Positions 567 to 17,314 of a stretch of 64,000 nucleotides of DNA are shown in pieces. How positions within the stretch are numbered: position 1 is the stretch's first letter; every line of letters starts with the position of its first letter. This stretch comes from Candidatus Melainabacteria bacterium 17Bon1m (GTDB taxonomy: Bacteria; Cyanobacteriota; Vampirovibrionia; Obscuribacterales; Obscuribacteraceae). The stretch covers positions 448,001 to 512,000 of the forward strand of contig JAVLKG010000001.1 of assembly GCA_032128875.1 (NCBI GenBank), written 5' to 3'. Below the pieces are notes generated by a model. That model worked only from the letters and a program-made list of their open reading frames with translations. It made no database searches and was not told the DNA's origin. The translations under genes were made by a program, and so were the position numbers.

Positions 567-2264
567 TCATTTTTGCTGCATGAGGGCTATCTGCTTTATT
601 TCTTTGAGATTTAATTTCCCATTTGCCAGGACCGGAAGTGTGTCCACCTTTATAAAATCATCTGCGTTCGGTATCCACAGGTTCGGCAGTTTCCCTTGCC
701 TTAACTCGTCGACGACCGTCTTCGGGTCTTTTGGCATATTCGAGTAAACAACCACCAGTCTTTCACCTCTTTTGTCATCAGGGACGGCAGTTACTGATAA
801 ACTGCCTGGCTGGGCGCCTGCGACATCTAAAATGGCGTCCTCGACAACGATATGTGAAATCATCTCGCCGGCAATCTTGGAAAATTGGCTCAATCTACCG
901 GTTATTGTTAGAAAGCCGTCTTCATCTAAAAAACCAATGTCTCCCGTGTTAAACCAGTCATCTTTTATTGCCTTTGCAGTTGCTTGAGGCTGTTTCAGAT
1001 AACCCAGCATGACCTGCGGTCCTTTGACGCTTATTAAACCTGCTTGTCCTTGTTTGAGTTCTGCACCAGTATTCACGTCAGTAATTCTTATGGCTGTTCC
1101 TGGAATGGGCAAACCGACGGTGCCTATTCTGTTTCCTTCGATTACTCTGCCGTCGGCGGTAGTAACATGATTTGGCACATTGCATGCCACCACCGGCGAT
1201 GTCTCTGCCAGCCCATAGCCTTGAATCGGCGCAAATCCTAGAAATTGCTCGATTTCGTGGCTCTGCTGAAGACTGAGTTTTTCGCCGCCAACAATGCAAT
1301 TACGCAGCGAGCTGAATTGCTCCTTCTTTAGTCGTCGGGCAAAGATATTCATCATCGTTGGTGTGCAAACAAAGCAGGTAGCCTTGAAGGACTCGGATAA
1401 TTCTCCAACGCGACGCGCATCAAATGGGTCATAGTGGTACACCACAGTTTCTCCCAGGCAAAGCGGTGCCCACAGAGTCATTGTCAAGCCAAAGGAGTGA
1501 AAGAAAGGAATAATTCCGAGCAAGATTTCTCCGTTTTTGATTTGTCCCTGCTCTTTTATTGCTCTGATATTGGAAAGTATGTTCGAATGAGAAAGGACCA
1601 CCCCTTTCGGCTCGCTGGTAGAACCGGCCGTAAAAATTACGACGGCTGGGTCATTTATCTTTCCTTCTTTTCCCGGAAAGATAGATTTCTTGCGTAATCC
1701 CAGTTCTTCTAAATTTATCCTGTGATTGTCAGACAGTCCATGTAAGAATTCACCTACAAGCGACTCCGGCAAAAAATTTGATTCTGTTGCCGACTTTAGT
1801 TTCGTAAGAAAGTCAGCCTCCTTTTCCACTGATTCAATAAAAATCAATTTTGCATTGTATTCAAGGTTGATCTTCCGTGCCGCTGGCTTGGCTGTGATTA
1901 TGTGCTTTATTCCGCAGGATTCTATGTAATGGTCGAATGCCTTTTGACCAGCTGTGTAATTTAGATTCACCGCTACTTTGCCAAGAAGGCTAACAGCAAG
2001 ATTGGCAATTACGGACCCTGCTGAGGGGGGCAACATTATTCCGACGCAAACAGTAGAATTCAGAGTCTTCTTCAACAAATTTGCAAGGGCAATCGCTCGA
2101 ACGAGTAATTGACCATAGGTCAGCTTGAAGCCTAAAGAGTCGCACACTGCAAGTGCGTGCGGCTGCAACCGTGCTTGATGGAAAAACGCTTGTGGTAGAG
2201 AGTTTGCCTGAATTGATTGATCAAGCGAAAAGTGTTTGAATTTGTATGCTGGTTTAATTAGCAT
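567..2264 (-). CDS. AMP-binding acyl-ACP/acyl-CoA synthetase resembling the synthetase half of Aas
   Basis: ANL motifs IFTAGSTSEPKGV, GYGLAETSP, TGDIG, RLSQFSKIAGEM and final GK; no PlsC acyltransferase domain seen. Confidence 0.85.
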   Translation of the reverse strand: MLIKPAYKFKHFSLDQSIQANSLPQAFFHQARLQPHALAVCDSLGFKLTYGQLLVRAIALANLLKKTLNSTVCVGIMLPPSAGSVIANLAVSLLGKVAVNLNYTAGQKAFDHYIESCGIKHIITAKPAARKINLEYNAKLIFIESVEKEADFLTKLKSATESNFLPESLVGEFLHGLSDNHRINLEELGLRKKSIFPGKEGKINDPAVVIFTAGSTSEPKGVVLSHSNILSNIRAIKEQGQIKNGEILLGIIPFFHSFGLTMTLWAPLCLGETVVYHYDPFDARRVGELSESFKATCFVCTPTMMNIFARRLKKEQFSSLRNCIVGGEKLSLQQSHEIEQFLGFAPIQGYGLAETSPVVACNVPNHVTTADGRVIEGNRIGTVGLPIPGTAIRITDVNTGAELKQGQAGLISVKGPQVMLGYLKQPQATAKAIKDDWFNTGDIGFLDEDGFLTITGRLSQFSKIAGEMISHIVVEDAILDVAGAQPGSLSVTAVPDDKRGERLVVVYSNMPKDPKTVVDELRQGKLPNLWIPNADDFIKVDTLPVLANGKLNLKEIKQIALMQQK

Positions 2265-3096
2265 GGGCTGAGACAGACTTCTTGTGTTTTTGTTTGGGTT
2301 TGTTGTTGCTGAAGAAAAGCAGCGTTGCCAGACCTGTAAAACATCCAGGAAATGTCAAACTTGGATTTAGTTTCCATGCCAGAGATCCTCCTGCCAGCAG
2401 CGCCGAATATGACGGTGCATGAGCGAACAATCGCTGGATTTTACTAATTTTCGCAATGCTGACGATCTCTATATCCTTCGAATTTTCAAGATCCGAATAG
2501 AGAATCGCAGGTTTGCCGAAAACCTGACTCACATGCAGTTCGATCGCATTCGGCAACTGTTTTAGCGTTTCATATATTAGCTGTGTGCAGTAAAACGAAT
2601 TCGTTTTTGTCAGATCGAATTTGCTGTTGAAGGGCTTTCCGAGTTTGCCGCGCAAGAAGGAAAGAGCAGATTGAATGTCTGCCGAATCTTTGTAGCGAGG
2701 TCTCAATATGGCTATTTTGCTGGCTTTGAGAAACTCATCCACGTCTACTACCGAGACATAAGGTTTTGAGCCGATGTCTATCACTTCATTCGAGCCGGCG
2801 TACACGCCGGAATGAATCCAGTACGATTTGAAGACGCTGGCACTTAGTTGCGCGAGAAGGAATTTGCAGTCGTCCTTCAGCAAAATATCGCCTGCGGCCA
2901 ACTGTGCCTTCAAAGCCTCTCTGCTTTCTTCTGATAGATACGCATTAAGCGTTGGAAAACGAAGATTCATTTTTCTTGCCGCAACCAGGACATAGCCTCG
3001 TCTAAGACGTCTTTCTAAGCGCGATGGCAGTCTGCGTCGGACACTAGCCGGCATTGTTTTTGAGTCGTAACTAGAGTCCCGTTTGTCTTCAGTCAT
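2254..3096 (-). CDS. Permuted papain-like NlpC/P60 (YiiX/YebB-like) hydrolase with hydrophobic C-terminus
   Basis: GDILL...WIHSGVY (His first) ...GKPFNSKFD...FYCTQL (Cys second); overlaps the downstream synthetase by 11 nt. Confidence 0.75.
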   Translation of the reverse strand: MTEDKRDSSYDSKTMPASVRRRLPSRLERRLRRGYVLVAARKMNLRFPTLNAYLSEESREALKAQLAAGDILLKDDCKFLLAQLSASVFKSYWIHSGVYAGSNEVIDIGSKPYVSVVDVDEFLKASKIAILRPRYKDSADIQSALSFLRGKLGKPFNSKFDLTKTNSFYCTQLIYETLKQLPNAIELHVSQVFGKPAILYSDLENSKDIEIVSIAKISKIQRLFAHAPSYSALLAGGSLAWKLNPSLTFPGCFTGLATLLFFSNNKPKQKHKKSVSAHAN

Positions 3097-3113
3097 GGCT
3101 TTCCAAACCCGCC

Positions 3114-3545
3114 CTACTTCAACGTTTGTAAGTACTCAACCAAGCTGTCGATTTCCCACTTCTCTAAATTCTGAGGCGGCATCAAATTTAAGTCGACATC
3201 GAATGATCCTTGCTGTTTGTCGAAGTGTTTGTCCGGGTCTTTAATATGCTCGCGTATGAAATCCTTCGACCGTTTGCTTGCAATGTTGTCCAGCGAATAA
3301 CCATTTTTGCAACCTTTGCCTTCGATGCTGTGGCAATCGAAGCACTGATAAGCTTTATAGAGCAATTTACCTTGTTTGGCAGAGGGCTCAACCGGTTTGG
3401 AATGCCTTGACCGCTTGATTGTCTTAGCTGTTAGCGCCTTTGATTTCTGTGCATCAGCGCCCTCTGTCTGTTTTTGTCCTGCATAAACACCACTGACCGA
3501 CAAAAGAAGTAACGTAAAGGTAGCTGCCGTAAGTCTTTTAGACAA
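3114..3545 (-). CDS. Exported mono-heme cytochrome c
   Basis: Signal peptide, CFDCH, ...FIREHIKDP...LMPP (Met ligand). Start set at TTG 3545, overlapping the usp stop; uncertain. Confidence 0.8.
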   Translation of the reverse strand: MSKRLTAATFTLLLLSVSGVYAGQKQTEGADAQKSKALTAKTIKRSRHSKPVEPSAKQGKLLYKAYQCFDCHSIEGKGCKNGYSLDNIASKRSKDFIREHIKDPDKHFDKQQGSFDVDLNLMPPQNLEKWEIDSLVEYLQTLK

Positions 3546-4452
3546 TGTAATGCACCTTTTTTTCTTTGACTTTCTGCTTTTGTGGAACAACTTCAACCGA
3601 GGACATTGAATGTACCGCAACGGCCTCGGACACGCTTCCTAGTATTAGTTTATCAATGCCCCGCCGACCATGTGAACCAAGGATAACAAGGTCCGCCTCC
3701 CATTCCTTGGCCTTTTCTATCAATTCAGTTTTGGCATCGCCTCTCAGCATCTCCGCGTGGGCTGACTTGTTGCCAAATCTATCATTGAGTTTTACTTCAG
3801 CAGCGTCAAGCCAGCTTGTTCTCTGTGCCACCATCGCATCATAATGCAATTTCATGCTCTTCATTGCTTCGGCGCCCAGGTGAGTGAGCAGCGGACCAGG
3901 TCTCTCCGGTACGACGTTGATGCATTTAAATGTTGTATTTACCGGCCAGTTTGAAGACAAAACATGCTCGACGAGCTTATCGGCGTTGTCTTTGTCGTCC
4001 ATGGCGATAATCACTCTGTTGTCTTCTTTATTTCCAGCCCGTTCCTTCTTTCTTACAACTCGCACTGCACAGCAAGCCTCAAGCAGGATTCTCCTGGATA
4101 CGCTGCCTAATATCAGATAAGTCAAGCCTGAGCGTCCACGGGTGCCTACCATTACTAAATCCGGCTTCCATTCTTGACTCGTACGCAGTATTTCGTCGGC
4201 CGCAAAGCCATCAGGCACAGAACCGGTTACGGTCGCATCAGAATGAGCCTCGCGTAATTTATCGACAGCATGATGGACGAGTCTTTCAGATTCAGCGACA
4301 ACGTGTTCTATAAGATCTACCGGCAAAGGATCGAGGAAGTCCAGGGCAGAAATAACCATAATCTCGCTGCCTTGTGGGAGCGGCATGGAAGCCGCTTCAT
4401 CGATCACTTGGTTGGATGAATCCGAACTGTCGATTCCGATCAAGAGTTTCAT
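3538..4452 (-). CDS. Tandem-domain universal stress protein
   Basis: MKLLIGID; two USP motifs GTRGRSG...LGSVS and GSHGRRG...LGSVS. Confidence 0.9.
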   Translation of the reverse strand: MKLLIGIDSSDSSNQVIDEAASMPLPQGSEIMVISALDFLDPLPVDLIEHVVAESERLVHHAVDKLREAHSDATVTGSVPDGFAADEILRTSQEWKPDLVMVGTRGRSGLTYLILGSVSRRILLEACCAVRVVRKKERAGNKEDNRVIIAMDDKDNADKLVEHVLSSNWPVNTTFKCINVVPERPGPLLTHLGAEAMKSMKLHYDAMVAQRTSWLDAAEVKLNDRFGNKSAHAEMLRGDAKTELIEKAKEWEADLVILGSHGRRGIDKLILGSVSEAVAVHSMSSVEVVPQKQKVKEKKVHYIV

Positions 4453-4646
4453 TTCTTTGTACCTGCTTATGCTGGCTGTGCCACGAATTTCTTCATTGTT
4501 TCTTACTTTCTTGACTGACGTATCAGTCAAATTGACTAATCGAAAAGAGTTGTTGAAAGGACTAATGTTGACCTGAATCATCCTTGAGAACAATGTCCCT
4601 TTAGGCGCAAAGGTCACACAATTAGAAAACTACTTCTTTCAATTAG

Positions 4647-4865
4647 ATGACATTGAAGATGAAAACAAAAAGCGAACGCTCAAGTGATTCAGATGCGCAA
4701 AAGTGCGCGGCAGCACATTGCCACTGCGTTTGCCGCGACCGTGAATACTGCTCGAAGCGCTGCGAATCTGCCTGCGACGGTCAGGAAATATGCCGGTGCG
4801 AGCATTCTCTTTGCGCTGGCAAAGAGTGCTATTCGCCGGAGGAATCGGCAAAAGTTGTAAAGTAA
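4647..4865 (+). CDS. Bacterial metallothionein-like protein
   Basis: 11 Cys and 3 His; pattern KC...HCHC...YCSxxC...CxCxHxxC resembles SmtA/BmtA. Alternative start at 4659. Confidence 0.7.
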   Translation: MTLKMKTKSERSSDSDAQKCAAAHCHCVCRDREYCSKRCESACDGQEICRCEHSLCAGKECYSPEESAKVVK

Positions 4866-4866
4866 A

Positions 4867-4890
4867 GAAGCCACCATTTATGGTGGCTTC
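4867..4890. terminator. Hairpin between convergent genes, probable terminator
   Basis: GAAGCCACCAT-TT-ATGGTGGCTTC perfect inverted repeat. Confidence 0.6.
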
Positions 4891-4918
4891 GCGTGGCTCA
4901 TTCAAAAGTATGAGCCAC

Positions 4919-5680
4919 TCAGACTATGCCGCGCCGCAGTGCATGTACCGCTGCTTGGGTTCTGTCGTCTACAGACAGCTTATTGAGAATGTTTCTGACG
5001 TGCGTTTTTGTTGTAGGCAGCGAAATAAAGAGCTTGTCTGAAATTTGCTGGTTGGACAGACCTTCGACAATCAACCCCAGCACTTCGAGCTCTCTTGTCG
5101 AAAGCGGTTCTACATACGGTCTGTCCGGTACATGACCTTCGTCCGGAGAATCTTTCTTTCCTGCATGGGCCGCCGGCTCTGCATCTTGGTTTTCTTCCCC
5201 GGTCGCTGCTTGCTCTTGGGAGGTATGTGACTGTTGCGAATACAACTTCAGAACTTTGCTGGCAATGGCGGTATCCAGCCAGGCATCGCCTGCCTTTACT
5301 GTGCGTATAGCCATGTAAAGACGCGAATCTTCGACGTCTTTCAAGCAATAACCGGATGCACCGGCAGTGAAAGAAGCCATAACATCCTGGTCATTATCAT
5401 GTTGCGTAAGCATGATGATTTTGGCGTTACTTCCGCTTTCCATAATCTTCTTCGACGCTTGAATGCCGTCCATTATCGGCATGCCTACATCCATCAAGAT
5501 TACGTCTGGTTTGAGCAAGGCAGCTTCTCGAACCGCTTCTTCTCCATTGGATGCCTCCCCGACAACAATTAAATCGCTTTCACGCTTCAAGACTGTTTTA
5601 ATACCAACCCGCGTCAGGGCGTGGTCTTCAACCAATAGAATGCGTATCGTCTTGCCTTCGTTTTTGCTTTCGTCCGTCAT
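4919..5680 (-). CDS. NarL/LuxR-family response regulator (RR1)
   Basis: REC domain (LVEDH, LMDVGMP, MLT, GYCLKD), long polar linker, LuxR HTH (LSTRELEVL...TKTHVRNILNKL...DDRTQAAV). Confidence 0.95.
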   Translation of the reverse strand: MTDESKNEGKTIRILLVEDHALTRVGIKTVLKRESDLIVVGEASNGEEAVREAALLKPDVILMDVGMPIMDGIQASKKIMESGSNAKIIMLTQHDNDQDVMASFTAGASGYCLKDVEDSRLYMAIRTVKAGDAWLDTAIASKVLKLYSQQSHTSQEQAATGEENQDAEPAAHAGKKDSPDEGHVPDRPYVEPLSTRELEVLGLIVEGLSNQQISDKLFISLPTTKTHVRNILNKLSVDDRTQAAVHALRRGIV

Positions 5681-5783
5681 ATTTTAATTTCCAAGCCGGG
5701 ACGTAATTATATATACTCCCAAATCGAAGCAGTAGTCTGCTTGACGACTGGCGTGTGACCGAATAAATACTGTGGGCTTGACA

Positions 5784-7388
5784 ATGAATGTGACTTCTCC
5801 ATTTTCGGAGCTGAGTGAATCTGAGATCAAACAGCGCCAGCGTTGGCTTGAATTCGAGTCGATTTCTGAAGCGGAAATAGCTGCTATTAACGCGCTTCTC
5901 GAAAAACATGCAGATGAGCTCATGGACAGCATGTACGAACACTTTTTGAGCTTCGAGGAAACGCGCAGTTTCTTCCCTACCGAGCAGATAATGCAGAGAG
6001 CCAAAGGCGCTCAAAAGCAGTATTTCTTGCGACTCGGTCGGGGCGTCTATGACACTGATTATGTGAGAGACAGACTCAGAGTAGGATTGACTCACCACCG
6101 AATTGAGCTCGATCCAAAATGGTACATAGGAGCTTACAACAGAGCTGCATCATGGCTTATGCCGAGACTCTTTGCCGAAAACGATTTAAGCGAATCGGCT
6201 AAAGTCGACCTGGCGAGGTCACTTCTAAAACTCATTTTTTTCGACATGGGGCTGGCCATTGAAAGTTATATCGGGTCGAAAGAATTGGCTCTCCTCGAGC
6301 ATCGAGATGCAATTAGAGAGTTAGAGACGGAAAAGAGAGTCACAAAGAGCATTCTCGAAAGTGCTCCTATCGGCATTGTAAGTTTAGATCTCGATTACAG
6401 ATGTCTTGAGTGCAATGAAGAGTTTGCTCAGCTTGTTTCCTGTGATTCCACTTCTGACGTTATTGGAAAATTGCTCTTTGATCTGGCCCCAAAGCTTCCT
6501 CAGGAGCCTTTCAAACACGTAATCGAAACAGGTCAACCAAGCCAGTTCTCGGCCAATGCTCTTAATTTTGCAAAGAACAATCCCACTGAGGTTACTTACT
6601 GGGATTGGGCGGCCTGGCCGGTAAAAAACAAAGGTGTATACGGCATTGTTGCCATGTTCTCGAATGCAACCGATAGAGTTCAGTTGCAACAACAAAGAGA
6701 AGATTTTGTTGCCACTCTTACTCATGACCTAAAAACCCCTGTTTCTGCAACCAATCGTGCGGTCAAGCTCATTCTTGCCGGGGATTTTGGCGAAGTTTCT
6801 GCCGAACTAAGGGAAATTCTCGAGACAGTTTTGCAAAGCAACACAACTCTGTATGCGCTCGTTCAAACTTTGCTTGATGTCTATCGCTTTGACAGCGGTG
6901 TCAAGGTTATGGATATGAAAGAGTGTAACCTGGCCGGGATAGTTACACAGCTTGTCACCGAAATCATGCCTTTGGCTCAAGAAAGGCGCATTCAGCTCAA
7001 GGCTGTTTTGCCATTTGATCTTGAGTGCATAAATTGCGACCAAGAAGAAGTCCGCCGTGTTGTGCAGAACTTGATTGACAATTCGCTTAAATTCACTCCG
7101 GCTGGCGGTACCGTCACCGTCACAATGTCTCAGAACGATGAACTCACCACCGTCTCGGTAAAAGACACTGGAAAAGGCATCCCGCCTGAGAACATGTCCA
7201 AGCTATTCCAAAGATTCTGGCAAGCCGGATCAAGCGGTCGATACTACGCTAGTACCGGACTCGGTCTTTACCTGGCAAGAAAAATTGTCGAAGGTCATGG
7301 CGGCAAAATTTCATGCGAGAGTAAGGTGGGAGAAGGCAGCACATTCTCGTTCGAGCTGCCTAATTCAGGCCAAACTCCAAAGAGCTAG
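5784..7388 (+). CDS. Globin-coupled sensor histidine kinase (globin-PAS-HisKA-HATPase), cytoplasmic
   Basis: HemAT/protoglobin-like N-terminus (MYEHF with B10 Tyr, VGLTHHRIELDPKWYIGAY with proximal His), PAS-like ILESAPIGIV, H-box THDLKTP, NLIDNSLKF, DTGKG, STGLGL; no transmembrane segment. GTG at 5772 is an alternative start. Confidence 0.9.
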   Translation: MNVTSPFSELSESEIKQRQRWLEFESISEAEIAAINALLEKHADELMDSMYEHFLSFEETRSFFPTEQIMQRAKGAQKQYFLRLGRGVYDTDYVRDRLRVGLTHHRIELDPKWYIGAYNRAASWLMPRLFAENDLSESAKVDLARSLLKLIFFDMGLAIESYIGSKELALLEHRDAIRELETEKRVTKSILESAPIGIVSLDLDYRCLECNEEFAQLVSCDSTSDVIGKLLFDLAPKLPQEPFKHVIETGQPSQFSANALNFAKNNPTEVTYWDWAAWPVKNKGVYGIVAMFSNATDRVQLQQQREDFVATLTHDLKTPVSATNRAVKLILAGDFGEVSAELREILETVLQSNTTLYALVQTLLDVYRFDSGVKVMDMKECNLAGIVTQLVTEIMPLAQERRIQLKAVLPFDLECINCDQEEVRRVVQNLIDNSLKFTPAGGTVTVTMSQNDELTTVSVKDTGKGIPPENMSKLFQRFWQAGSSGRYYASTGLGLYLARKIVEGHGGKISCESKVGEGSTFSFELPNSGQTPKS

Positions 7389-7912
7389 TTTTTCCCGGTT
7401 CCAGAAGCCACGGCTTTCTTCTCGGATTTTTCGTCTACCGTTTTTCTGGGAACTCTCACTATCATCACGTTGCAAGGCGCGTGCGAAACGACCGCTCCTG
7501 ATACGCTTCCGAGGAAGAATTTGGTGAAACCGGTACGCCCGTGGGAGCCCACCACTATCATGTCGGCAGACAAACGCTTTGCTTCATCCACAATAACTTC
7601 TGCCGGCATCCCTCCAACCACGTCTGTTTCGATCTCAAATTGAGCCAGTTTTTGTTGCATGTCTGATTTCACCCTAAGCAAAAGCTTTTCGGCGTAATCA
7701 CGTACATCCTTTTCTACCGATTCAAGAAAAAGTGGATAGCTGGCCATTGGGTGATCCATCATGATCGGCGCAATAACATGAATTAGCCTGAACTTCGTCC
7801 CGTCCGTCCATTTGTGATTGGTGAGAAAGTCCACGATAAGAGGTGCGGCCGAACTTTCATCGATTGCAGCCAGGACTAGATATCCACTCTTTTTTTCGTC
7901 TTTGTTGTTCAT
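7385..7912 (-). CDS. Universal stress protein (single domain)
   Basis: VLAAIDE...VVGSHGRTG...LGSVSGAVVSHAPCNV. Confidence 0.9.
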   Translation of the reverse strand: MNNKDEKKSGYLVLAAIDESSAAPLIVDFLTNHKWTDGTKFRLIHVIAPIMMDHPMASYPLFLESVEKDVRDYAEKLLLRVKSDMQQKLAQFEIETDVVGGMPAEVIVDEAKRLSADMIVVGSHGRTGFTKFFLGSVSGAVVSHAPCNVMIVRVPRKTVDEKSEKKAVASGTGKN

Positions 7913-7917
7913 GATGC

Positions 7918-8895
7918 TCACTTGCTTTGTTTTTTGTGATTGGTCGTGATGAGTTCGTTTTTTCTTTCTTCTGTCAATTTGAAGCCTTTGTGATCTTCGG
8001 GCCACAGAAGCAGGCAGGGCAATGTCAAACTGACAATGAAGTCTTCCGGTGCAGTGCCTAGAACCGTTATTCTCTTCTTGCCAATGTCTCGTGTAGGCAA
8101 AACGAAAAGAGTCTCTGCAAAGATACTTTCATCTGTTTCACCGGCCTTGTTTTCGTAAAAGAGATCCTGGCGACTCATAGCTGCATGACCTTCAAAGCAG
8201 TCGATCTCAATGTCTATGCCTTTGGCCTCAGGCAGCTCGGAGAGAAGATCCTTCTTAAAGTTGGCCGGTTTTTCTTCTCTCACACCCGTTGCCCAAAATT
8301 CCAGTTTGGGTGTAAGACCCAGCACCAATGCCAGATTTAGGCAGGAGCGGATGTATTGTATGTTGATGTGGTCCATCTCTGAAACAATGGTCATCCCCTG
8401 CCAGACGGCCGGCTTTGATTGTACGATCAGCACGGGAATGGGCGATTCATGCGCAATTCCTTCGGCAATAGAGCGCCTTATGTAATGATTGAAGTCACGG
8501 TCTACCGCACGAAGCCCCGAAGGAGCATGTCCTAGCACAATCAGATCGTAGTCTTTTGCATCTTGTGCGAGCAATTCCACTGGATTACCTTCTTTGGTAA
8601 TTACTTTTCCTTCGATTTTTTTGCCTTCTGCGATTGCCTCATATTTAGACAGCAACTGGTTGCTTAGAGAGCGCATCGACTCCATAGTCTGGTCATAAGC
8701 TTGTACGTAAGGACCGCTGCCAATAAATCCAGGCTTGTCGCTTCTTAAGAGTTCCCAGACTGTGCGGCAGTCAATAATGTGCTCTGCAGTCACGGTCGCA
8801 TTTATCTTTTCAGCAATAAACCAAGCTAGCTCCGCTGCGTTGCGAGATTGCTCAGACCCGCTCAGTGCAACGAGGATCGAATGTTTGCTCATCAT
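7918..8895 (-). CDS. Universal stress protein with divergent C-terminal half
   Basis: ILVALSGSEQS...GNPVELL...DLIVLGH...SIAEGIAHESPIPVLIV. Confidence 0.8.
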   Translation of the reverse strand: MMSKHSILVALSGSEQSRNAAELAWFIAEKINATVTAEHIIDCRTVWELLRSDKPGFIGSGPYVQAYDQTMESMRSLSNQLLSKYEAIAEGKKIEGKVITKEGNPVELLAQDAKDYDLIVLGHAPSGLRAVDRDFNHYIRRSIAEGIAHESPIPVLIVQSKPAVWQGMTIVSEMDHINIQYIRSCLNLALVLGLTPKLEFWATGVREEKPANFKKDLLSELPEAKGIDIEIDCFEGHAAMSRQDLFYENKAGETDESIFAETLFVLPTRDIGKKRITVLGTAPEDFIVSLTLPCLLLWPEDHKGFKLTEERKNELITTNHKKQSK

Positions 8896-8921
8896 CTATC
8901 TCCTGAAATTTGATTGAAAAA

Positions 8922-9848
8922 CTATCTATAGACAAGAACACTTGTTCTCGTTGCTCGCACTATGTGAGTGGTCGTGCTTCCGACGACATTCTCTTCCGGA
9001 TCCTTAAAACCATATGCGCCTACTATTAAAAGCGCGTTCTGCTCTTCAGCTTGTCTCAGAATAGTGTTGGCTGGTTGACCGACCTTTACATCAAAAACAT
9101 CTTGCATCAAGCATCTAGTCTTTACTGCAACGCCTCCATCATCAGTGCCTTCTTTCTGCTGCTCTGGCGTTTGATAATTGCGCAACAACGATGCACCCAT
9201 TTCTATGATGCTATTAGCTTGCTTGATTTGATCTTCTTCTCTTACTACAAGTATGGCTTTCAGAGGTATGCCGGTGGCGATTGCCAGCTGTTCGCCCAAA
9301 AGAAGCGCTCCTTTTGAGGGCTCGCTGCCATCGTATGCAACCAGAATTGTCTTCAGTGAGTCCGGTGGTGTCACTGAAATCAATACTGACTTTTTCGCAC
9401 CGACTGCCACCCTTTCTGCTACCGAACCGACACGAAAGAATGACAATGCTGCTTGATGATTCTTGTAACCTACGCCTCTATGTCCTACAACGACCAGAGC
9501 TTTATTCTTTCCCGCCTTGAGAATCTCTTCGGTGACATCTCCAAGCACCATATGTGTCTTTGCTGCGCATCCCATGTGTGCTTCTGCATCCGCTTTCCAC
9601 AATTTGAGAATGACAGTGGCTATCTTCTTCAGACCTTGGATAATCTTTGCTGAAGCATCGATTGAAGGTTTGATGCCGAGATCTTCTGCGAATTCCGGGG
9701 AGAGGAAAAGATCGACGATTCGTGGATCTACAACTGATATCGCTTCAAGTTCTGCATCAGTTTTTTTTGCTATCCAGAATGCGGTAAGTGATGCGTTCTG
9801 ACTGTATTCGGAGCCGTCCAGTGCGACCAAAACACGGGTGTTTTTCAT
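8922..9848 (-). CDS. Tandem-domain universal stress protein
   Basis: VLVALDGSEYS...GHRG...VGSVAERV; ILVAYDGSEPS...GAYG...VGSTTTHIV. Confidence 0.9.
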   Translation of the reverse strand: MKNTRVLVALDGSEYSQNASLTAFWIAKKTDAELEAISVVDPRIVDLFLSPEFAEDLGIKPSIDASAKIIQGLKKIATVILKLWKADAEAHMGCAAKTHMVLGDVTEEILKAGKNKALVVVGHRGVGYKNHQAALSFFRVGSVAERVAVGAKKSVLISVTPPDSLKTILVAYDGSEPSKGALLLGEQLAIATGIPLKAILVVREEDQIKQANSIIEMGASLLRNYQTPEQQKEGTDDGGVAVKTRCLMQDVFDVKVGQPANTILRQAEEQNALLIVGAYGFKDPEENVVGSTTTHIVRATRTSVLVYR

Positions 9849-9936
9849 GATATACCTGCTTCTTTCCTTTCCGCAGCTGTAAAGCCGGTGGCTAACCTTG
9901 CTGCTTCTATCATCCGGTTTCTTTCAGCAGGGGATA

Positions 9937-10009
9937 TCGACCGCAATGACTATTGCTGTCTTTTGCCGTCCGGAGGGCTTTTGGTAAGGGCTGTCATCAC
10001 AAAGTATGA
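9937..10009. promoter_or_regulatory. Two putative NarL-type 7-2-7 operator boxes upstream of the usp triplet
   Basis: TCGACCG-CA-ATGACTA (9937-9952) and TCATCAC-AA-AGTATGA (9994-10009). Confidence 0.6.
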
Positions 10010-10010
10010 G

Positions 10011-12449
10011 TTAAGTGGCCGCTGCTGCGGCTGCTTCAGGCAAGCGAGCTTGCAGAAGTTGCGCTTCTTTCTCATAAACCAGCTGAATGGTCTTAACAAC
10101 CACATCTGCGCTCAGTGAAATACTGTCTATTCCTTCTGCGACCAGGAACTCTGCAAATTCAGGATAATCACTTGGGGCCTGACCGCAAATGCCTATTTTG
10201 CGACCTGCTTTTTTCGCTTCCTTAATGACATGAGATATCATCTTCTTGACCGCGGAGTTTCGCTCATCAAAGAGTTCCGCTACGTCTTTCGAGTCTCTAT
10301 CTACACCCAAAACAAGTTGCGTGAGGTCGTTCGAGCCGATCGAAAAACCATCGAAAATCTCAGCAAATTCGTCAGCCAGGATGACATTCGATGGAATTTC
10401 GCACATAACGTAGACTTCCAATCCTGCCTTGCCTCGCTCAAGCCCATTGTCCGCTAATTCCTTGAGAACAAGCAGACCCTCATTAATAGTTCGGCAAAAA
10501 GGCACCATGATTTTCACATTCGTAAGACCCATCTCTTCTCGAACATATTTAAGAGCGCGGCATTCCAGAGCAAAACCGTCTTTGTATGCTTTGTTGTAAT
10601 ATCTTGATGCTCCTCTAAAACCCAGCATCGGATTTTCTTCTACCGGCTCGAATTGACCACCTCCTAGAAGATTGGCATATTCATTGGTCTTAAAATCCGA
10701 AAGTCTGACGATTACAGCTCGAGGATAGAAAGCCGCGGCAATCGTTCCTATTCCCTCGCTCAACCTCTCTACGAAATAGTCTGTCTTGTTTTCATATTTG
10801 CCAGTCAGGTTTTGAATAGCTTCTTTCGCCTCTGAATCGTGCAATTGGTCAAATCGTGTCAAAGCCAGTGGATGCACTTTCACTTCGTTAGCAATGACGA
10901 ATTCTTCCCGCGCAAGTCCTACTCCGTCTACAGGTAAATGAGAGAGCGTAAAGGCTTGATCCGGATCGGCCAGATTGAGCATGATTTTTGTTTTCGGTTT
11001 TGGCAATTCATCAAAATCAAGCTCTAACTTGTCAAACTGAAGCATGCCTGAAAACACTTTCCCTTCAGTTCCTTCGGCACAAGATACTGTCACTTCAGTT
11101 CCTGATTTCAGCATTCTTGTAGCTAATTCCGTGCCTACCACGCAAGGCACTCCCAATTCACGGCTTACAATCGCCGCATGGCAGGTTCTACCACCCCTGT
11201 TGGTGACAATGGCTGCCGCTCTTTTCATAACCGGTTCCCAGTCCGGGTCTGTCATATCGGCGACCAGTACTTCACCGTCTTTAAAGGAAACCAATTCTTC
11301 TTTTGTTCTAATTAACCTTACTTTTCCTGCGCCGATTCGCTGGCCAATAGCGCGTCCCTGAAAGAGCAATTCTCCCTTTTCTTTCAGTGAATACGAAGTG
11401 ATTGTGCTTGCTTTCCTTGCCGAAATGACGGTTTCGGGGCGAGCTTGAACTATGTACAATCGCTGACTAAGTCCATCTTTTGCCCATTCGATGTCCATAG
11501 CCATTGCGTGATTGTTCACTTTGCTATAGTGCTCTTCAATTGAAATTGCCCATTTTGCAAGCGTGTTTACTTCTTCATCGCTCAAGGAAAGTTGATTTCG
11601 AACTTCGTCGGGCACCGGAAGATTTTTTGTTCTTCTGGTTCCGTGATTATCGTATACAAGGCGTTGTTGCTTTAGTCCGACTTTTCGTCTCAGAATTGCT
11701 TTGAACCCTTGCTTAAGGGCCGGTTTGAAGACCAGATATTCATCAGGGTCCACTTTTCCTCCGACCACATTCTCACCCAGTCCCAGTGCCGATGTAATCA
11801 GAACAGCGTCCCTAAATCCGCTTTCTGTATCGAGAGTGAAAATGACTCCCGAAGATGCGAGATCGGAGCGGACCATCTTCTGCACTGCAATCGATAGCTT
11901 GACGCCAAGCTGGTCGAAGCCTTTGTCGTGTCTATAGGAAATCGCTCTTTCTGTGAAAAGAGAAGCAAAACAATCTAAGCAAGCGACAATCAGTGCTTGC
12001 TCACCCTGGATGTTCAAAAACGACTCCTGTTGCCCGGCAAAAGAAGCATCAGGTAAGTCTTCTGCCGTTGCACTGGAGCGAACAGCCACATCTACATCGT
12101 TGCTTTCGCTGTTCTTCGAGAGCAATTTGTAAGCGGAGATCACTTCTCGTTTTACCGGCTCCGGAATTCCTGCTTTTCGTATCAGCTCTCTTGCTTTATG
12201 AGAGCGTTCCTGTAAATCCTGCACACTGCCTGTGAGTGGCGACTGAAAGAGCTTCTCCAGCTCGTTTTTAACGTTGCCTTGTTCGAGAATTGCATCATAT
12301 GCATCGACTGTGATCGCAAAGCCTTCCGGTACATTGATGCCGAGTTGGCTGAGGCATCCTGTCATTTCGCCCAGGGACGCATTCTTCCCTCCGACCTTCG
12401 GCAAGCTGGCCATCGAAATCTCGTCGAATTGCAATATGTACTTGCTCAT
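10011..12449 (-). CDS. ppsA: Phosphoenolpyruvate synthase (pyruvate, water dikinase)
   Basis: VGGKNASLGEM, VAVRSSATAEDLPDASFAGQQES, phospho-His motif GGRTCHAAIVSRE, ENPMLGFRG, FSIGSNDLTQ; GGAG SD. Confidence 0.97.
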   Translation of the reverse strand: MSKYILQFDEISMASLPKVGGKNASLGEMTGCLSQLGINVPEGFAITVDAYDAILEQGNVKNELEKLFQSPLTGSVQDLQERSHKARELIRKAGIPEPVKREVISAYKLLSKNSESNDVDVAVRSSATAEDLPDASFAGQQESFLNIQGEQALIVACLDCFASLFTERAISYRHDKGFDQLGVKLSIAVQKMVRSDLASSGVIFTLDTESGFRDAVLITSALGLGENVVGGKVDPDEYLVFKPALKQGFKAILRRKVGLKQQRLVYDNHGTRRTKNLPVPDEVRNQLSLSDEEVNTLAKWAISIEEHYSKVNNHAMAMDIEWAKDGLSQRLYIVQARPETVISARKASTITSYSLKEKGELLFQGRAIGQRIGAGKVRLIRTKEELVSFKDGEVLVADMTDPDWEPVMKRAAAIVTNRGGRTCHAAIVSRELGVPCVVGTELATRMLKSGTEVTVSCAEGTEGKVFSGMLQFDKLELDFDELPKPKTKIMLNLADPDQAFTLSHLPVDGVGLAREEFVIANEVKVHPLALTRFDQLHDSEAKEAIQNLTGKYENKTDYFVERLSEGIGTIAAAFYPRAVIVRLSDFKTNEYANLLGGGQFEPVEENPMLGFRGASRYYNKAYKDGFALECRALKYVREEMGLTNVKIMVPFCRTINEGLLVLKELADNGLERGKAGLEVYVMCEIPSNVILADEFAEIFDGFSIGSNDLTQLVLGVDRDSKDVAELFDERNSAVKKMISHVIKEAKKAGRKIGICGQAPSDYPEFAEFLVAEGIDSISLSADVVVKTIQLVYEKEAQLLQARLPEAAAAAAT

Positions 12450-12463
12450 TTTTAGCTCCACTC

Positions 12464-12880
12464 TTATGAGTAACGATGGACCTCTTGAAGCAGAAGATCG
12501 AAAATCACGGGTGCAAGATTGGAACAGCTCAGTTGGCAGTCGAGCGGTTTTGCTTTTCCTGAGGCCATCCTTGCTCTGTAATAACTCAATCTGTTCTGAA
12601 ATGATTTCCAGGCTGTTTGCATGTCTGCTGCACTCGTCGTGTTATTCCTGCTTGCGAAAAAGTGCTGTAATACTTTATATGCGGCCTGGCAGCATTCGCA
12701 GCAATCGGTCAGATCATTTTCTGGGTTGCCGACGGTTTCAATCTCTTTCGGGTCACCGCCATCCTCAAATACACCAAACTCCCTTGCTCCTTGCTGAATA
12801 GCCTGAGCTCCAGTCAGTCCGTTGCCCACAAGTAAATCGTGAATATATAAACGGGCGCTTGGAAAGCTTAGCGACTTCAT
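12464..12880 (-). CDS. Hypothetical protein with CCECC cluster
   Basis: Lies within the operon; 4-nt ATGA overlap with the upstream gene; no recognised family. Confidence 0.6.
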   Translation of the reverse strand: MKSLSFPSARLYIHDLLVGNGLTGAQAIQQGAREFGVFEDGGDPKEIETVGNPENDLTDCCECCQAAYKVLQHFFASRNNTTSAADMQTAWKSFQNRLSYYRARMASGKAKPLDCQLSCSNLAPVIFDLLLQEVHRYS

Positions 12881-13458
12881 GTTTCAAAACCGGCCTTTGT
12901 CTCCGAGACCAAAGCGATTGCGTTTTGTTGACCCAGTTCTGTGCCTGTATCGATGCCGTCTTCAACTGTAATCAGATGTTTGCCGCCCGCACAGAAGAAA
13001 TGATGAATGAGTGGACGCAATTCACGAATGCGATCTTGCTTGCTGCCGACAAATTGTCCGAGATCGACTGAAATTAGCCCATCTGCGTTTTCCATTTCAT
13101 CAAGCGCCGCTCTGAATCCAAAAGACGGATGGTCCGAAACATCGCTGAATGTGTCATAAATTTGATAGCCATTCTCGCTGCAGTACGCTTTAATGAGTTC
13201 GAGCTTTTCCTCGAGGTCCTCTTCTTTGAGCACGCGGATGTAGACTACCAGTCGTTCTTTTCTATTGCGATTGACATAGTAGTTTGAGATTGAATTGCTT
13301 TTCTCGGTGCAAAGGCAACGATTCAGCAGGTCTCCTTGATGACTAATTCTAGGAGAGTGCGGTCTTTTCTCTTTGAAAAAGTGTTCCATTAAGGGACGCT
13401 GTTCGTGATCATCCAAAGCGTTCATTGTTTTTACTCCCGGACTTCCGTTGTTTTCCAT
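12877..13458 (-). CDS. Serine recombinase/resolvase catalytic-domain homolog, apparently inactive
   Basis: VYIRVL (canonical YxRVS), ..AYC..NGY.I...F.D, D.LI..DL, LITVEDGIDT.T..G. Catalytic Ser and DRxxR are missing; no HTH. Confidence 0.7.
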   Translation of the reverse strand: MENNGSPGVKTMNALDDHEQRPLMEHFFKEKRPHSPRISHQGDLLNRCLCTEKSNSISNYYVNRNRKERLVVYIRVLKEEDLEEKLELIKAYCSENGYQIYDTFSDVSDHPSFGFRAALDEMENADGLISVDLGQFVGSKQDRIRELRPLIHHFFCAGGKHLITVEDGIDTGTELGQQNAIALVSETKAGFET

Positions 13459-13469
13459 TTGTAATGAGC

Positions 13470-13937
13470 TTATGCGATTTTTTGTTCCTTGACTGCATCT
13501 ATCGGTTTAATAACTACAACCGAGCAGGGTGCATGAGAGACAAGGAACATTGAGACGCTTCCCAAAATAATTCTGTCCAGTCCGTGCCGTCCATGACTTC
13601 CCACGATGAGCATTTCAGGTCTTTCTCTGGTCACTTCCTTCATGATCTCGTCTGCAGCAAAACCTTCTATTATCTGCTTTTGAATCATTGTCTTTGGCAC
13701 AGATCTACTTATGGTGCGAACAAAGTCTTCGACCAGACGAGCTGCCTCGTCTTTTCGCTTCTCCAGCATTTCATCAAGAACTGGACCCGGCAGTACGGCC
13801 ATTAGATTGCCGACTTTGAGAGGCTCGACAACACTCAATACCTTAAAGTCCGTGCCTTCATCCCATTTGTGAGTGTTTACAAATTCAGCAATTGCATTTG
13901 CAAAATTGACTTCATCTATAGCGATCAAAACTTTCAT
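13470..13937 (-). CDS. Universal stress protein
   Basis: MKVLIAIDE...VGSHGRHG...LGSVS...HAPCSV; GAGG SD. Confidence 0.9.
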   Translation of the reverse strand: MKVLIAIDEVNFANAIAEFVNTHKWDEGTDFKVLSVVEPLKVGNLMAVLPGPVLDEMLEKRKDEAARLVEDFVRTISRSVPKTMIQKQIIEGFAADEIMKEVTRERPEMLIVGSHGRHGLDRIILGSVSMFLVSHAPCSVVVIKPIDAVKEQKIA

Positions 13938-14010
13938 TTGCCAAAACCTCTTGTACTGAGTCTCGCCGTCTCGTTGCTGCCATTTGACCACGCTTGAATC
14001 CGTCGACACA

Positions 14011-14135
14011 TCATGCAAAGGGACTAGGGCCAGTCAACCGAAGCTCTCGGTCACTTACTTTCTTTCAAAATTGCCCCGGACCCAACCGCATTATTTAGGA
14101 TAGTCACTACGATTTGCCTTCATACTAAAGGACTA
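14011..14135. promoter_or_regulatory. Two putative 7-2-7 boxes in the divergent usp-ppsA / mgtA promoter region
   Basis: TCATGCA-AA-GGGACTA (14011-14026) and TCATACT-AA-AGGACTA (14120-14135). Confidence 0.65.
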
Positions 14136-14300
14136 TTCATTCGGGTAAGTAAGAGGCAAACTGCTCTGGATTTCCGCTTTTGCTGGTCTTAACAACAGTC
14201 AAACCTGGGAACGATGGGGACATTTCTCCCAGATGGCACTATTAAAGCCAGGCGGCGTTTGCAAAGGTTACTTTGCCGCCCACGTTGGAGAGGCGAGAGT

Positions 14301-14669
14301 ATGCTTTTACAGAACGTTCACCAAGGTTCAGACTTCAGAGACGCCGTGGAAAAGCCCGCACTAGATGCATGTCTTGCGTCGATTCTCGCTTGCACGGGTT
14401 TAGGGGTACTAGTCACTTACCTTTGGCTTGTCGAATCAATACCAGTTGCCAGTCTTTCAGGAGCCGTCATGGCTGGGGCTGCAGTCGGTGCCAGCGCGGG
14501 AATTCTCCTATTCGGACTTGTTGATGTGGTGATCTCTGGACGCCTCGAGGAATCTGCAGAAATTGTTGAAGATGCAGATGCAGTTTTAGACAACGAAGAG
14601 AAATACGAAACGCCGCCAGAATTTCTGGGGCAAGAGGAAGATGACTTCACTCTGCAGAAAGCCTCGTAA
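14301..14669 (+). CDS. Hypothetical 2-TM membrane protein with acidic tail
   Basis: GGAG SD before ATG 14301; two hydrophobic helices; directly upstream of mgtA. Confidence 0.6.
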   Translation: MLLQNVHQGSDFRDAVEKPALDACLASILACTGLGVLVTYLWLVESIPVASLSGAVMAGAAVGASAGILLFGLVDVVISGRLEESAEIVEDADAVLDNEEKYETPPEFLGQEEDDFTLQKAS

Positions 14670-14676
14670 TTTTGAT

Positions 14677-17214
14677 ATGCAAGAAGCGGGGACAAATGCA
14701 ACGGGCTCCTCGCAACTTGAAGCCGATGGTCTTTCCCAGGAAGTGGCCGCGAGACTCCTTGAGAAATACGGGCTCAATGAACCAGCGAGGGCACGCAAGA
14801 ATGACTGGCTCATCGCATTTTTAGAACGTTTCAAAAACCCGCTGGTGATCATACTTATGGGCGCCGGTCTTGTTTCCGCCGCCACTGGAGAAATGACCGG
14901 ATTTACCATCATTTTTGCAATCGTTTGCATAAGCATAACTATGGACTTCTTCCAGCAATACCGCGCCGATAAAGCGGTGGAGAGGCTTTCGCAAAGTGTG
15001 TCCCTGGAAAGTACAGTATTGCGCGACCAGAAAGAAATAAAGCTTCCAAGCAGACAGATCGTTCCTGGTGATGTTGTCTTACTTTCTGCAGGAGACCTTA
15101 TACCTGCAGATGGAGTGCTAATTCGAGCGCGCGATTTTTTTGTCAACCAGTCAATGCTGACAGGAGAAACCTATCCCGTCGAAAAGAAACATTCATGTTC
15201 GGCGGATGTGCGCACGAAAAAACTTAACCAAAACGATCTGAACGAACCGCATTTTGCCTTTGCCGGCAGCTCTGTCGTCAGCGGAATCGGCAGACTTCTC
15301 ATTTTGTCCACTGGTGCAAACACAGTCTTGGGCAGTATCTCGACCAGTCTTGCTGCTCGCCGACCAGAAACATCGTTTGAGTCAGGCGTCAGAAGGTTCG
15401 GCATGATGATTATGCGCGTTACTCTGGTGCTCGTTGTATTTGCATTCGCGGTAAATGTTGCTGCGCATAGACCCTTATTGCAATCTCTGTTATTTGGTGT
15501 GGCATTAGCGGTTGGATTGACTCCTGAGCTTCTTCCTATGGTGATAACAGTGACGCTAAGCAAAGGTGCTCTGGAAATGGCCAGACAGAGCGTCATTGTA
15601 AAACGCCTTTCTGCCGTTCAAGATCTTGGCTCTATGAGCGTTCTTTGCACAGATAAGACCGGGACTCTTACAGAAGGAAAAATCGTGCTGGAAAAGCACG
15701 TCGATCTCTCAGGTGAGGACAGTCAGGATGTTCTTCAACTCGCCTACCTCAACAGTTATTTCGAGACCGGTGTGAAGAGCGCCCTCGATGATGCGATACT
15801 GGCGCACCGAGAAGTAGATATGTCCGGTTGGAAAAAAATTGATGAAGTACCTTTTGATTTCGAAAGAAGGCGAGTCTCTGTTTTAGCTGAACGCGGCTCC
15901 GCACGCCTGCTGGCGGTAAAAGGCGCAGCTGACAGCATTCTGAAACTGTGCAGTAGAGCAGAGCTCTCCGATGCGCAAGTTATCGAAATGAACGCTGAAT
16001 TGAAAGCTAAGATCGACGCTCTTTTTAAAACTCTTGCTGAAGACGGCTTTCATATTCTGGCAATTGCTTACAAGCAAGTCGATGCTTCACACGATCATGC
16101 GCGATTAGATGACGAAAGAGAGCTTGTCTTCAAAGGATTTGCTGCTTTCCTTGATCCTCCCAAATCGTCTGCAAAAGATGCCTTGGTTGCGCTCGGTGAA
16201 GATAATGTGCAGGTGAAAGTACTGAGCGGAGACCACGAACTTGTTGCAAAATATGTTTGCAAAGAGCTCGACTTTGAAATCTCTGGTCTGCTTATTGGTG
16301 ATGAAATAAACAAACTGGACGACCATGCCCTGCAGGCAAGATGCCAAAACACCAATCTCTTCTGCAGAGTCACTCCTTCTCAAAAGACGAGGATAATTGC
16401 TGCCCTAAAGGCTCGCGGAGCTACAGTTGGCTTCCTGGGTGACGGCATCAATGACGCGCCCTCGTTGCATACTGCAGATGTCGGTATATCAGTGGACACT
16501 GCTGTAGATGTGGCAAAGCAAGCCGCAGACATGGTTCTTCTGAAGCATGATTTAAAGGTGCTTCACGCCGGAATAAGAGAAGGGCGCCGCGCCTTCGTCA
16601 ATGTGCAGAAATATATTCTAATGGCGACCAGCTCCAATTTTGGCAACATGTTTAGCATGGCTATGGCTACCCTTTTTCTGCCTTTTCTGCCGATGCTGCC
16701 CGTGCAAATTCTTTTGAATAATCTTCTTTATGACCTTTCAGAACTGGCTTTGCCTATGGACAATGTCGACGAAGAGCTTCTTTCTAAGCCTTCATACGGC
16801 GATATAAGTTTTATCAAAAAGTTTATGCTCTCTATCGGACCAATAAGCTCCATCTTCGACTTCATCACATTTTTTGTGCTGATTTCTATTTTGAAAGCGA
16901 ATGAAAGTCTTTTCCATACGGGCTGGTTTGTCGAATCGCTGGCTACGCAGATACTTGTAATTTTTGTGATTAGAACAAGACGCCCTTGCCTGAAAAGCAA
17001 ACCTGGAAAGTTCTTGGTGCTGCTCAGCCTTTCGATTGTCTTAACTGCTTGTATTTTTACCTTGCCACCTTTCGCACGGACATTTGGATTCAGTCCATTG
17101 CCACCTGTATTCTTTGGCATCCTTGCCTTGATTGCGAGCGTATATCTCGCATTCGTAGAGATTGCCAAGCATGTTTTTTACCGGCGTTTGAGAGGCTCTA
17201 CTATTGCCGTTTAG
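14677..17214 (+). CDS. mgtA: Magnesium-translocating P-type ATPase (P3B)
   Basis: LTGE, AVGLTPELLPM, DKTGTLT, PFDFERRR, GDGINDAP, TSSNFGNMFS, LLNNLLYD, FHTGWFVESL. Confidence 0.92.
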   Translation: MQEAGTNATGSSQLEADGLSQEVAARLLEKYGLNEPARARKNDWLIAFLERFKNPLVIILMGAGLVSAATGEMTGFTIIFAIVCISITMDFFQQYRADKAVERLSQSVSLESTVLRDQKEIKLPSRQIVPGDVVLLSAGDLIPADGVLIRARDFFVNQSMLTGETYPVEKKHSCSADVRTKKLNQNDLNEPHFAFAGSSVVSGIGRLLILSTGANTVLGSISTSLAARRPETSFESGVRRFGMMIMRVTLVLVVFAFAVNVAAHRPLLQSLLFGVALAVGLTPELLPMVITVTLSKGALEMARQSVIVKRLSAVQDLGSMSVLCTDKTGTLTEGKIVLEKHVDLSGEDSQDVLQLAYLNSYFETGVKSALDDAILAHREVDMSGWKKIDEVPFDFERRRVSVLAERGSARLLAVKGAADSILKLCSRAELSDAQVIEMNAELKAKIDALFKTLAEDGFHILAIAYKQVDASHDHARLDDERELVFKGFAAFLDPPKSSAKDALVALGEDNVQVKVLSGDHELVAKYVCKELDFEISGLLIGDEINKLDDHALQARCQNTNLFCRVTPSQKTRIIAALKARGATVGFLGDGINDAPSLHTADVGISVDTAVDVAKQAADMVLLKHDLKVLHAGIREGRRAFVNVQKYILMATSSNFGNMFSMAMATLFLPFLPMLPVQILLNNLLYDLSELALPMDNVDEELLSKPSYGDISFIKKFMLSIGPISSIFDFITFFVLISILKANESLFHTGWFVESLATQILVIFVIRTRRPCLKSKPGKFLVLLSLSIVLTACIFTLPPFARTFGFSPLPPVFFGILALIASVYLAFVEIAKHVFYRRLRGSTIAV

Positions 17215-17221
17215 CAAAGCA

Positions 17222-17237: not shown

Positions 17238-17314
17238 TGGCGAAAGTCGTTTTGCTAACTAGATTAGATGAGATAGCCGCAGCGACTTGCATATTACGAG
17301 CGAGGGCATTGGAC

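Follow-up and report, generated by a model that had tools for sequence, protein, structure and literature searches.

The 64,000-nt stretch analyzed here (the window), positions 448,001 to 512,000 of contig JAVLKG010000001.1 of Candidatus Melainabacteria bacterium 17Bon1m (GCA_032128875.1), contains the gene of a histidine kinase with an N-terminal sensor globin domain, placed head-to-head with the gene of a NarL/FixJ-type response regulator (RR1). The source is an Obscuribacterales (Melainabacteria) metagenome-assembled genome (MAG) of 7.55 Mb in 35 contigs, 93% complete. We consider it likely that this locus encodes a two-component system that senses a gas or the redox state by means of haem, in which the globin kinase would signal to RR1, and probably to its paralogue RR2, and through them to an island of stress genes. 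The domains, key residues, conservation, gene pairing, island content and phyletic spread reported below were seen directly.

The gene pair

The kinase gene (5784-7388, + strand) encodes 534 aa from the ATG at 5784, which we took as the start because the orthologues begin at that ATG; a GTG at 5772 is an alternative. RR1 (4919-5680, - strand) has 253 aa, and the start codons of both genes are 103 bp apart, or 91 bp if the GTG of the kinase is used. We found 41 related loci, at least 53% identical, in MAGs of Melainabacteria/Obscuribacterales, with a few records labelled otherwise; the closest (L001) is 96% identical. An RR1 orthologue is divergent from the kinase within 700 nt in 39 of them, and in the remaining two the contigs start inside or just before the kinase gene. 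This recurrence indicates that the pair is not the product of chance.

Domains and key residues of the kinase

One polypeptide joins the sensor globin to a HisKA/HATPase_c transmitter. Counting residues from the GTG, the Pfam domains are Protoglobin (16-168), PAS/PAS_4 (193-303), HisKA (308-376) and HATPase_c (423-531), all above cut-off; the Protoglobin match (PF11563) reaches 125.5 bits against a cut-off of 25 (E 2.5e-36). In the 534-aa ATG form, the PAS domain (residues 189-299) is inserted between the globin and the kinase core. On the + strand, the globin domain with Tyr51 and His104 spans 5817-6275 (Pfam, PDB matches and alignment), the PAS domain 6348-6680 (Pfam and the AlphaFold2 model), and the HisKA/HATPase_c core with its N, G1, F and G2 boxes 6693-7364 (Pfam, alignment and Foldseek). 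No GAF domain and no haem-PAS family was matched by Pfam in the kinase. The highest Kyte-Doolittle mean over 19 residues is only 1.41, within a globin helix, so no membrane span is predicted.

Conservation was counted over 121 sequences, the query and its best 120 homologues, all of these at least 58% identical, with the same architecture and carrying automatic names only. Tyr51, His104 and the predicted phospho-acceptor His314 are invariant (121/121), and the same is true for Asn433 of the N box, Asp461, Gly463 and Gly465 of G1, and Gly492 and Gly494 of G2. With an F box from Phe475 onward, likewise invariant, the protein has the H, N, G1, F and G2 boxes of a class I (HisKA) kinase. An earlier note on this DNA had described a soluble globin-PAS kinase with H, N and G boxes, a B10 Tyr in MYEH, a proximal His in GLTHHRI and a REC-LuxR gene head-to-head across about 100 bp, and all these descriptions agree with our results.

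The globin region searched alone (residues 1-182) against solved structures matches the Geobacter globin-coupled sensor GsGCS (2w31, E 5.3e-9), HemAT (1or4, E 2.8e-7), the globin of the Vibrio stressosome (7o0i, E 2.5e-6) and, more distantly, the AfGcHK globin (5ohe, E 5.1e-3). The Tyr of MYEH aligns with the B-helix Tyr of HemAT, GsGCS and AfGcHK, and the first His of THHRI with their proximal His, positions which we take to be B10 and F8, respectively, by the usual convention. We see almost no room for a globin domain that holds no haem and binds another ligand, as in RsbR-type or photoglobin-type globins. Sensor globins of this kind do exist, although the known non-haem families have no proximal His, as stated in passages of PMC8717448, which makes this explanation unlikely for a domain where that residue is invariant and aligned with a solved haem ligand. 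The family matched in Pfam is, besides, the haem-binding Protoglobin.

In sensor globins, a Tyr at B10 is usually tied to the stabilization of bound O2. This argues against the haem reporting NO, CO or an Fe(III)/Fe(II) redox change instead of O2, in which case the locus would be a nitrosative or redox stress switch; we regard that as quite improbable. Globin-coupled sensors and DosS/DosT nevertheless bind several gases, and DosS is described as answering low O2, low redox state or ligands in the part of PMC8125079 that deals with it. Moreover, two other residues close to the predicted haem ligands, His53 (invariant) and His105 (99/121), could permit an unusual haem coordination. The spread of the family again speaks for O2, since it follows the order that respires rather than those orders of the class that ferment, as these are characterized in passages of PMC4040986.

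Four further cysteines are conserved: Cys207 (115/121) and Cys210 (120/121), forming a CxxC in the PAS domain, and Cys418 (118/121) and Cys511 (119/121) in the ATP-binding domain. Judging from the sequences, they may leave room for a second input, thiol or metal. That the kinase is mainly a thiol/metal redox sensor working through these four residues, with the globin in a secondary role, seems very unlikely to us. SrrB, which is among the structural matches of the kinase core (6paj; E down to 2.2e-34 for the core against PDB), reportedly uses a pair of cysteines in its ATP-binding domain. However, in the alignment obtained with SrrB neither Cys418 nor Cys511 is matched to a cysteine, and the haem residues of the globin are conserved more strictly still (121/121).

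The AlphaFold2 model of the kinase, built from 25 sequences, has a mean predicted local distance difference test (pLDDT) of 78.3 and a predicted template modelling score of 0.43. It contains a helical globin, a 55-residue helix (137-191), a five-strand PAS domain, a DHp hairpin and the ATP-binding domain. In a Foldseek search with the full model, the three C-terminal domains match PAS-kinases (a WalK model, VicK 4i5s and YF1 4gcz), and no globin-kinase structure was returned.

The response regulator and its paralogues

RR1 is composed of a REC domain (14-125), an acidic linker of about 45 aa and a GerE helix-turn-helix (HTH, 192-247). Its Pfam scores are 94 bits for Response_reg and 68.4 bits for GerE, and its architecture is that of the NarL/FixJ family. 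The predicted phospho-acceptor Asp64 aligns with the MD motif of VraR. The best NCBIfam matches are NarL, MadR and MctR, all under cut-off, with FixJ also among the matches. Since RR1 reaches 158.4 bits against the NarL equivalog NF007935, under its cut-off of 250, we regard it as a member of the family and not as NarL itself. Among solved structures it matches VraR (7.1e-46), NarL (1.5e-34) and DevR (3c3w, 7.1e-31).

A second regulator, RR2 (53079-53834, + strand), already proposed in the earlier note, is 73% identical to RR1. Its neighbours are a cytochrome c gene on one side and a Ca-type P-type ATPase gene on the other, with no kinase gene adjacent. The REC alpha-1 stretches of RR1 and RR2 are identical save for one Ser/Ala change. 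RR3, a third NarL-type orphan located on another contig (G000:C4:234500-238500), is a paralogue of 54-56% identity; it has a universal stress protein (USP) gene on either side and is divergent from a sigma-70 family gene. RR1, RR2 and RR3 have almost the same HTH recognition region. In five other genomes, the kinase-linked regulator is always present (5/5), accompanied at E <= 1e-55 by a single paralogue of 45-49% identity in four of them, so that RR2 is a recent duplicate.

The divergent promoter region (5681-5783) contains an AT-rich 14-mer at 5705-5718 and a conserved CTTGACGAC at 5740-5748. The 14-mer is kept across distant orthologous intergenic regions. In the window it is unique, with 2 matches when up to 3 mismatches are allowed, against 2.7 expected. 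Promoter-like hexamers occur at 5688-5717 (+), and -10-like hexamers on both strands coincide with the 14-mer, so overlapping divergent promoters are the best reading of this element. Its interpretation as an autoregulatory operator was set aside, given that it is unique in the window and fits overlapping -10 boxes.

Just past the RR1 stop codon, a consensus scan detected a terminator-like hairpin of 10 pairs (4867-4890, - strand), in a region where the number of matches equals the shuffle expectation, which makes it weak evidence. From this hairpin, RR1 is probably monocistronic. An unannotated 72-aa open reading frame (ORF) at 4647-4865 (+), with 11 Cys and a metallothionein-like look but no Pfam match, is convergent with RR1 and shares the hairpin. 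On the opposite strand, the ORF at 4639-4905 (-), orf88, was rejected as a gene: its translation looks non-coding, and its conservation is explained by the Cys-rich ORF.

Phyletic distribution

The profile search found a single Protoglobin match in the whole source genome. Among 300 other genomes sampled from the class, orthologues of the globin domain are present in both families of the order, in 80 of 96 and in 3 of 3 genomes (83 of 99 together). None was found in four other families (0/30, 0/98, 0/9 and 0/12), and 13 further genomes gave matches of just 23-30% identity, mostly in open frames of about 400-550 aa, so that no other family of the class exceeds 30%. In a sample covering the phylum, 4 of 300 other genomes match the globin domain, the best two being 39-41% identical, with open frames that measure 318-333 aa.

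According to passages of PMC4040986, Obscuribacter can switch between respiring aerobically, respiring anaerobically and fermenting. The Obscuribacterales are the respiring, facultative branch of the non-photosynthetic relatives of Cyanobacteria, and their O2 sensing is not described in the papers searched. The only match on Melainabacteria in the literature search was Vampirovibrio, for which a passage of PMC4451040 infers a globin-coupled sensor for aerotaxis. As a candidate O2 sensor, the present family is near-universal, single-copy and read out simply through two genes, and a soluble kinase of about 530 aa should be straightforward to express.

The surrounding stress island

At least one USP region is present in 37 of the 41 loci. 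Of the 32 loci that reach 12 kb, 31 have one or more, and the mean in this set is 3.6 per 19.7 kb. In the window, USP genes were found at 3538-4617, 7385-8005, 7918-8895, 8922-9848, 13470-13940, 17237-17812 and 38378-38863. Of 31 USP-domain matches in the whole genome, 9 fall inside the window and another 6 are 10-27 kb upstream of it, resulting in 15 within about 66 kb around the pair. Three of these genes (7385-8005, 7918-8895 and 8922-9848, - strand) are convergent with the kinase, syntenic in loci L001-L012, and candidate targets of the regulators.

An operon-like run follows on the same strand (10011-13940, -), containing a USP gene (13470 to about 13940), orf193, the Cys-rich orf138 and a phosphoenolpyruvate (PEP) synthase gene (10011-12461; 1155.6 bits against a cut-off of 598). 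In the opposite direction (14641-19722, +) are an MgtA-type P-type ATPase gene (14641-17214; ATPase-IIIB_Mg, 849.6 bits against 610.75), a USP gene (17237-17812) and FtsH (17716-19722), which are also candidate targets. A Ca-type P-type ATPase, a hemerythrin and three cytochrome c genes are further members of the window.

The stress island continues into the 20 kb that precede the window (G000:C1:428001-448000), which contain hypA, B, D, E and F, a maturation protease, three USP genes, erythromycin-esterase-like and phosphoribosyltransferase (PRTase) genes, and an acetyl-CoA transferase. The same 20 kb hold a four-subunit NiFe hydrogenase, which with the hyp genes is found 9 kb upstream of the pair. 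Its subunits best match sulfhydrogenase alpha, beta and gamma; the label of group 3b is our own. In three of the five other near-complete genomes compared, a hydrogenase of this type is 4.6-11.9 kb away from the kinase.

Within the operon-like run, the gene pair at 12464-13458 (-) encodes the Cys-rich protein of 138 aa and a 193-aa protein with a sub-threshold match resembling Resolvase-N (E 5.5e-4). Many distant loci, such as L022, L027, L034 and L038, have orthologues of this pair beside the globin kinase, and the pair may belong to the same module. A ferritin-like DUF2383 protein (33927-34400, +) and a single-domain hemerythrin (35422-35901, -) are located in the same island. Two abutting histidine-kinase genes (23151-26077, -), of 478 and 496 aa, have no recognized sensor domain, and for the upstream one the HATPase_c match is no more than weak (E 3.9e-7). 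The window also encodes a bacterial alpha-2-macroglobulin-like protein of 1553 aa with MG2, A2M and TED domains (26670-31331, +), and a TPR-repeat protein (62511-63992, -) whose C-terminal part matches Pfam ATLF, a metalloprotease of the lethal-factor type (E 2e-7).

A conserved element upstream of USP operons

Located 56-120 nt upstream of USP operons, we found a conserved 21-nt element, TAGTC-N5-G[GT][TA][CT]GAT. In the window, one copy (9934-9954, -) is about 100 nt upstream of the USP gene at 8922-9848. Two others (14007-14029 and 14116-14138, -) precede the run of USP and PEP synthase genes, in the divergent region shared with the operon of the MgtA-like ATPase, and rank 1 and 4 genome-wide. 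The element occurs in 24 of the 123 regions upstream of USP genes, compared with 78 out of 4000 random segments, a ratio that is inflated since the regular expression was derived from part of the same set; the matches include loci outside the defining set (L015, L016, L019, L023, L028-L030, L032, L035 and L041).

A position weight matrix for the element, constructed with sequences of other genomes, gave 67 matches above 13 bits in the 7.55-Mb genome, which equals the shuffle expectation. Five sites reach 19 bits, three of them in the window and the other two within long ORFs, and a further top-scoring site of 18.4 bits is also inside an ORF. A Gibbs sampler applied to 28 upstream regions of the USP and regulator genes of this genome gave only about 12 bits in total for 20 columns, corresponding to noise, and no shared motif. 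Nothing useful came from 8-mer enrichment over 67 USP upstream regions. The operator motif that the earlier note had counted among the visible parts of the circuit could not be established, given that the element is significant only before two USP operons, including the region 13939-14213, and the Gibbs search was null. The 21-nt element is genuine and conserved, and its tie to RR1 is putative.

Proposed mechanism

From these observations we infer that haem is bound, as well as the ligand, the target genes and the direction of the response, as follows. The kinase would act as a soluble dimer holding haem b in its N-terminal globin, with His104 as ligand and Tyr51 in the distal pocket. The long helix that links the globin to the PAS domain would shift when O2 is bound or lost or, less likely, in response to NO, CO or a change in iron oxidation state. 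The signal would then travel via the PAS-DHp coiled coil and set the autophosphorylation of His314, from which the phosphoryl group would pass to Asp64 of RR1, probably also to the orphan RR2 and perhaps to RR3. The regulators would control the USP genes, PEP synthase, P-type ATPases and the group-3b-like NiFe hydrogenase with its maturation genes. The output of the island would be a hypoxia or energy-stress programme similar to the DosR/OsdR regulons. Comparing with known systems, the response may go either way. The O2-bound state could be the active one, as in AfGcHK, where O2 binding enhances autophosphorylation (as reported in PMC8697598), or low O2 could activate the kinase, as in the DosS-type sensors described as activating DosR under that condition in a section of PMC8125079.

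The earlier note had suggested O2 sensing with targets visible in the same region. The first part is reasonable, given the homology with globin-coupled sensors, the ligand being predicted. For the second, candidate USP operons, PEP synthase and P-type ATPases do surround the pair, as possible targets.

Some points weigh against this two-component reading. Next to the proximal His (residues 101-105), the pLDDT is under 50, which is expected in a model of the apo form and is not supportive. The O2-on behavior of AfGcHK is not simply transferable because the similarity is weak (5ohe, E 5.1e-3). RR1 is not closer to DevR than to VraR or NarL. The distance between hydrogenase and kinase exceeds 1 Mb in two of the five other genomes, though the hydrogenase is flanked by USP genes there. 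Four public runs labelled as RNA-Seq hold the window from 2000 to 20000 in single contigs of 31.8-38.5 kb with no differences; the libraries clearly contain DNA of the organism, or may be the source of this DNA, and since the region sits in contigs of this size, they reveal neither transcription nor operon ends. Finally, no operator common to the candidate targets and the regulator genes was found by the genome scan and the Gibbs search, and consequently only the conserved neighbourhood links the regulators with the island.

This last result also fits an explanation in which the two-component system is real and some other regulator or sigma factor governs the USP, hydrogenase and PEP synthase genes nearby, their clustering reflecting a shared stress island only. 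The 21-nt element is indeed devoid of the inverted-repeat symmetry typical of NarL-type dimers, and a sigma-70 family gene adjoins RR3. Nevertheless, genera whose proteins are 53-77% identical have preserved the kinase-regulator-USP neighbourhood, and the paralogous orphan RR3 is likewise flanked by USP genes. We consider this explanation unlikely and prefer the globin kinase, RR1 and probably RR2 as the likely regulators of the island.

A wider hypothesis can be put forward tentatively, and we are inclined to doubt it. The single-copy, order-wide kinase would combine the O2 input of the haem-globin with a thiol/metal input (the PAS CxxC and the Cys pair of the ATP domain) and feed up to three NarL-type regulators. 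It would thus run a dormancy/hypoxia programme (USPs, group-3b hydrogenase, PEP synthase and cation ATPases) assembled independently of the actinobacterial DosR, in a non-photosynthetic lineage that is sister to the oxygenic Cyanobacteria.

Comparison with known systems

The closest solved globin domains, with aligned haem residues, are those of HemAT, GsGCS and the Vibrio RsbR-type sensor (1or4, 2w31 and 7o0i). Their outputs differ from that of the present kinase, being chemotaxis, membrane and stressosome outputs, with no histidine kinase.

AfGcHK of Anaeromyxobacter sp. Fw109-5 and NmpU of Myxococcus xanthus are, like the present protein, soluble kinases with an N-terminal Protoglobin-type domain followed by HisKA/HATPase_c, and they share the aligned Tyr and His. 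AfGcHK reportedly lacks a PAS domain, and its partner regulator is said to have no DNA-binding domain. In contrast, the Obscuribacterales family has a PAS domain with a CxxC between globin and kinase, and its similarity to AfGcHK is distant, weaker than to HemAT or GsGCS. For NmpU, passages of PMC11841059 describe a haem His required for activity and a pathway controlling oxygen-utilization genes (cbb3 oxidase, P-type ATPase, HemN and hemerythrin). That pathway has multiple steps and ends in the NtrC-like NmpR, as outlined in the same passages, whereas here the kinase is head-to-head with the DNA-binding, NarL-type RR1. The circuit, presented as not described in the earlier note, appears undescribed only as regards this Obscuribacterales family, and is of a kind already known from AfGcHK and NmpU. 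No paper on this globin-PAS kinase family was found in a full-text literature search that left subscription journals and supplements outside its scope. Globin-coupled kinases as such are known, and what appears undescribed is a family that contains a PAS domain, is coupled to a NarL-type regulator and is restricted to an order. With it, globin-coupled kinases would gain a third output logic, namely direct coupling to a NarL-type transcription factor through PAS.

The FixL-FixJ system of rhizobia also combines a haem O2-sensing kinase with a regulator of the FixJ/NarL superfamily, and YF1, which carries the FixL kinase core (4gcz), is a structural match of our model. In FixL, however, the haem is in the PAS domain, while here the globin is the haem domain.

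The DosS/DosT-DosR (DevR) system of mycobacteria and OsdK-OsdR of Streptomyces likewise join a haem kinase (with predicted haem in our case) and a NarL-family regulator among many USP genes. According to passages of PMC8125079 and PMC5069765, the DosR and OsdR regulons hold USPs, hydrogenases (Hhy and Hyh) and PPDK. The likeness in gene content extends here to USPs, the group-3b-like hydrogenase, PEP synthase, and the erythromycin-esterase-like and PRTase genes. On the other hand, the sensor of DosS/DosT is a haem GAF domain and not a globin, RR1 is not specifically DevR-like, and no GGGAC-type palindromic operator was found by the matrix scan and the Gibbs search. As the phylum differs, the resemblance with DosR would be convergent or mosaic. 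If the island is indeed the regulon, a DosR-like hypoxia programme of USPs, hydrogenase and gluconeogenesis would have arisen with a different haem sensor in a different phylum, which would bear on the generality of dormancy programmes in soil and wastewater bacteria.

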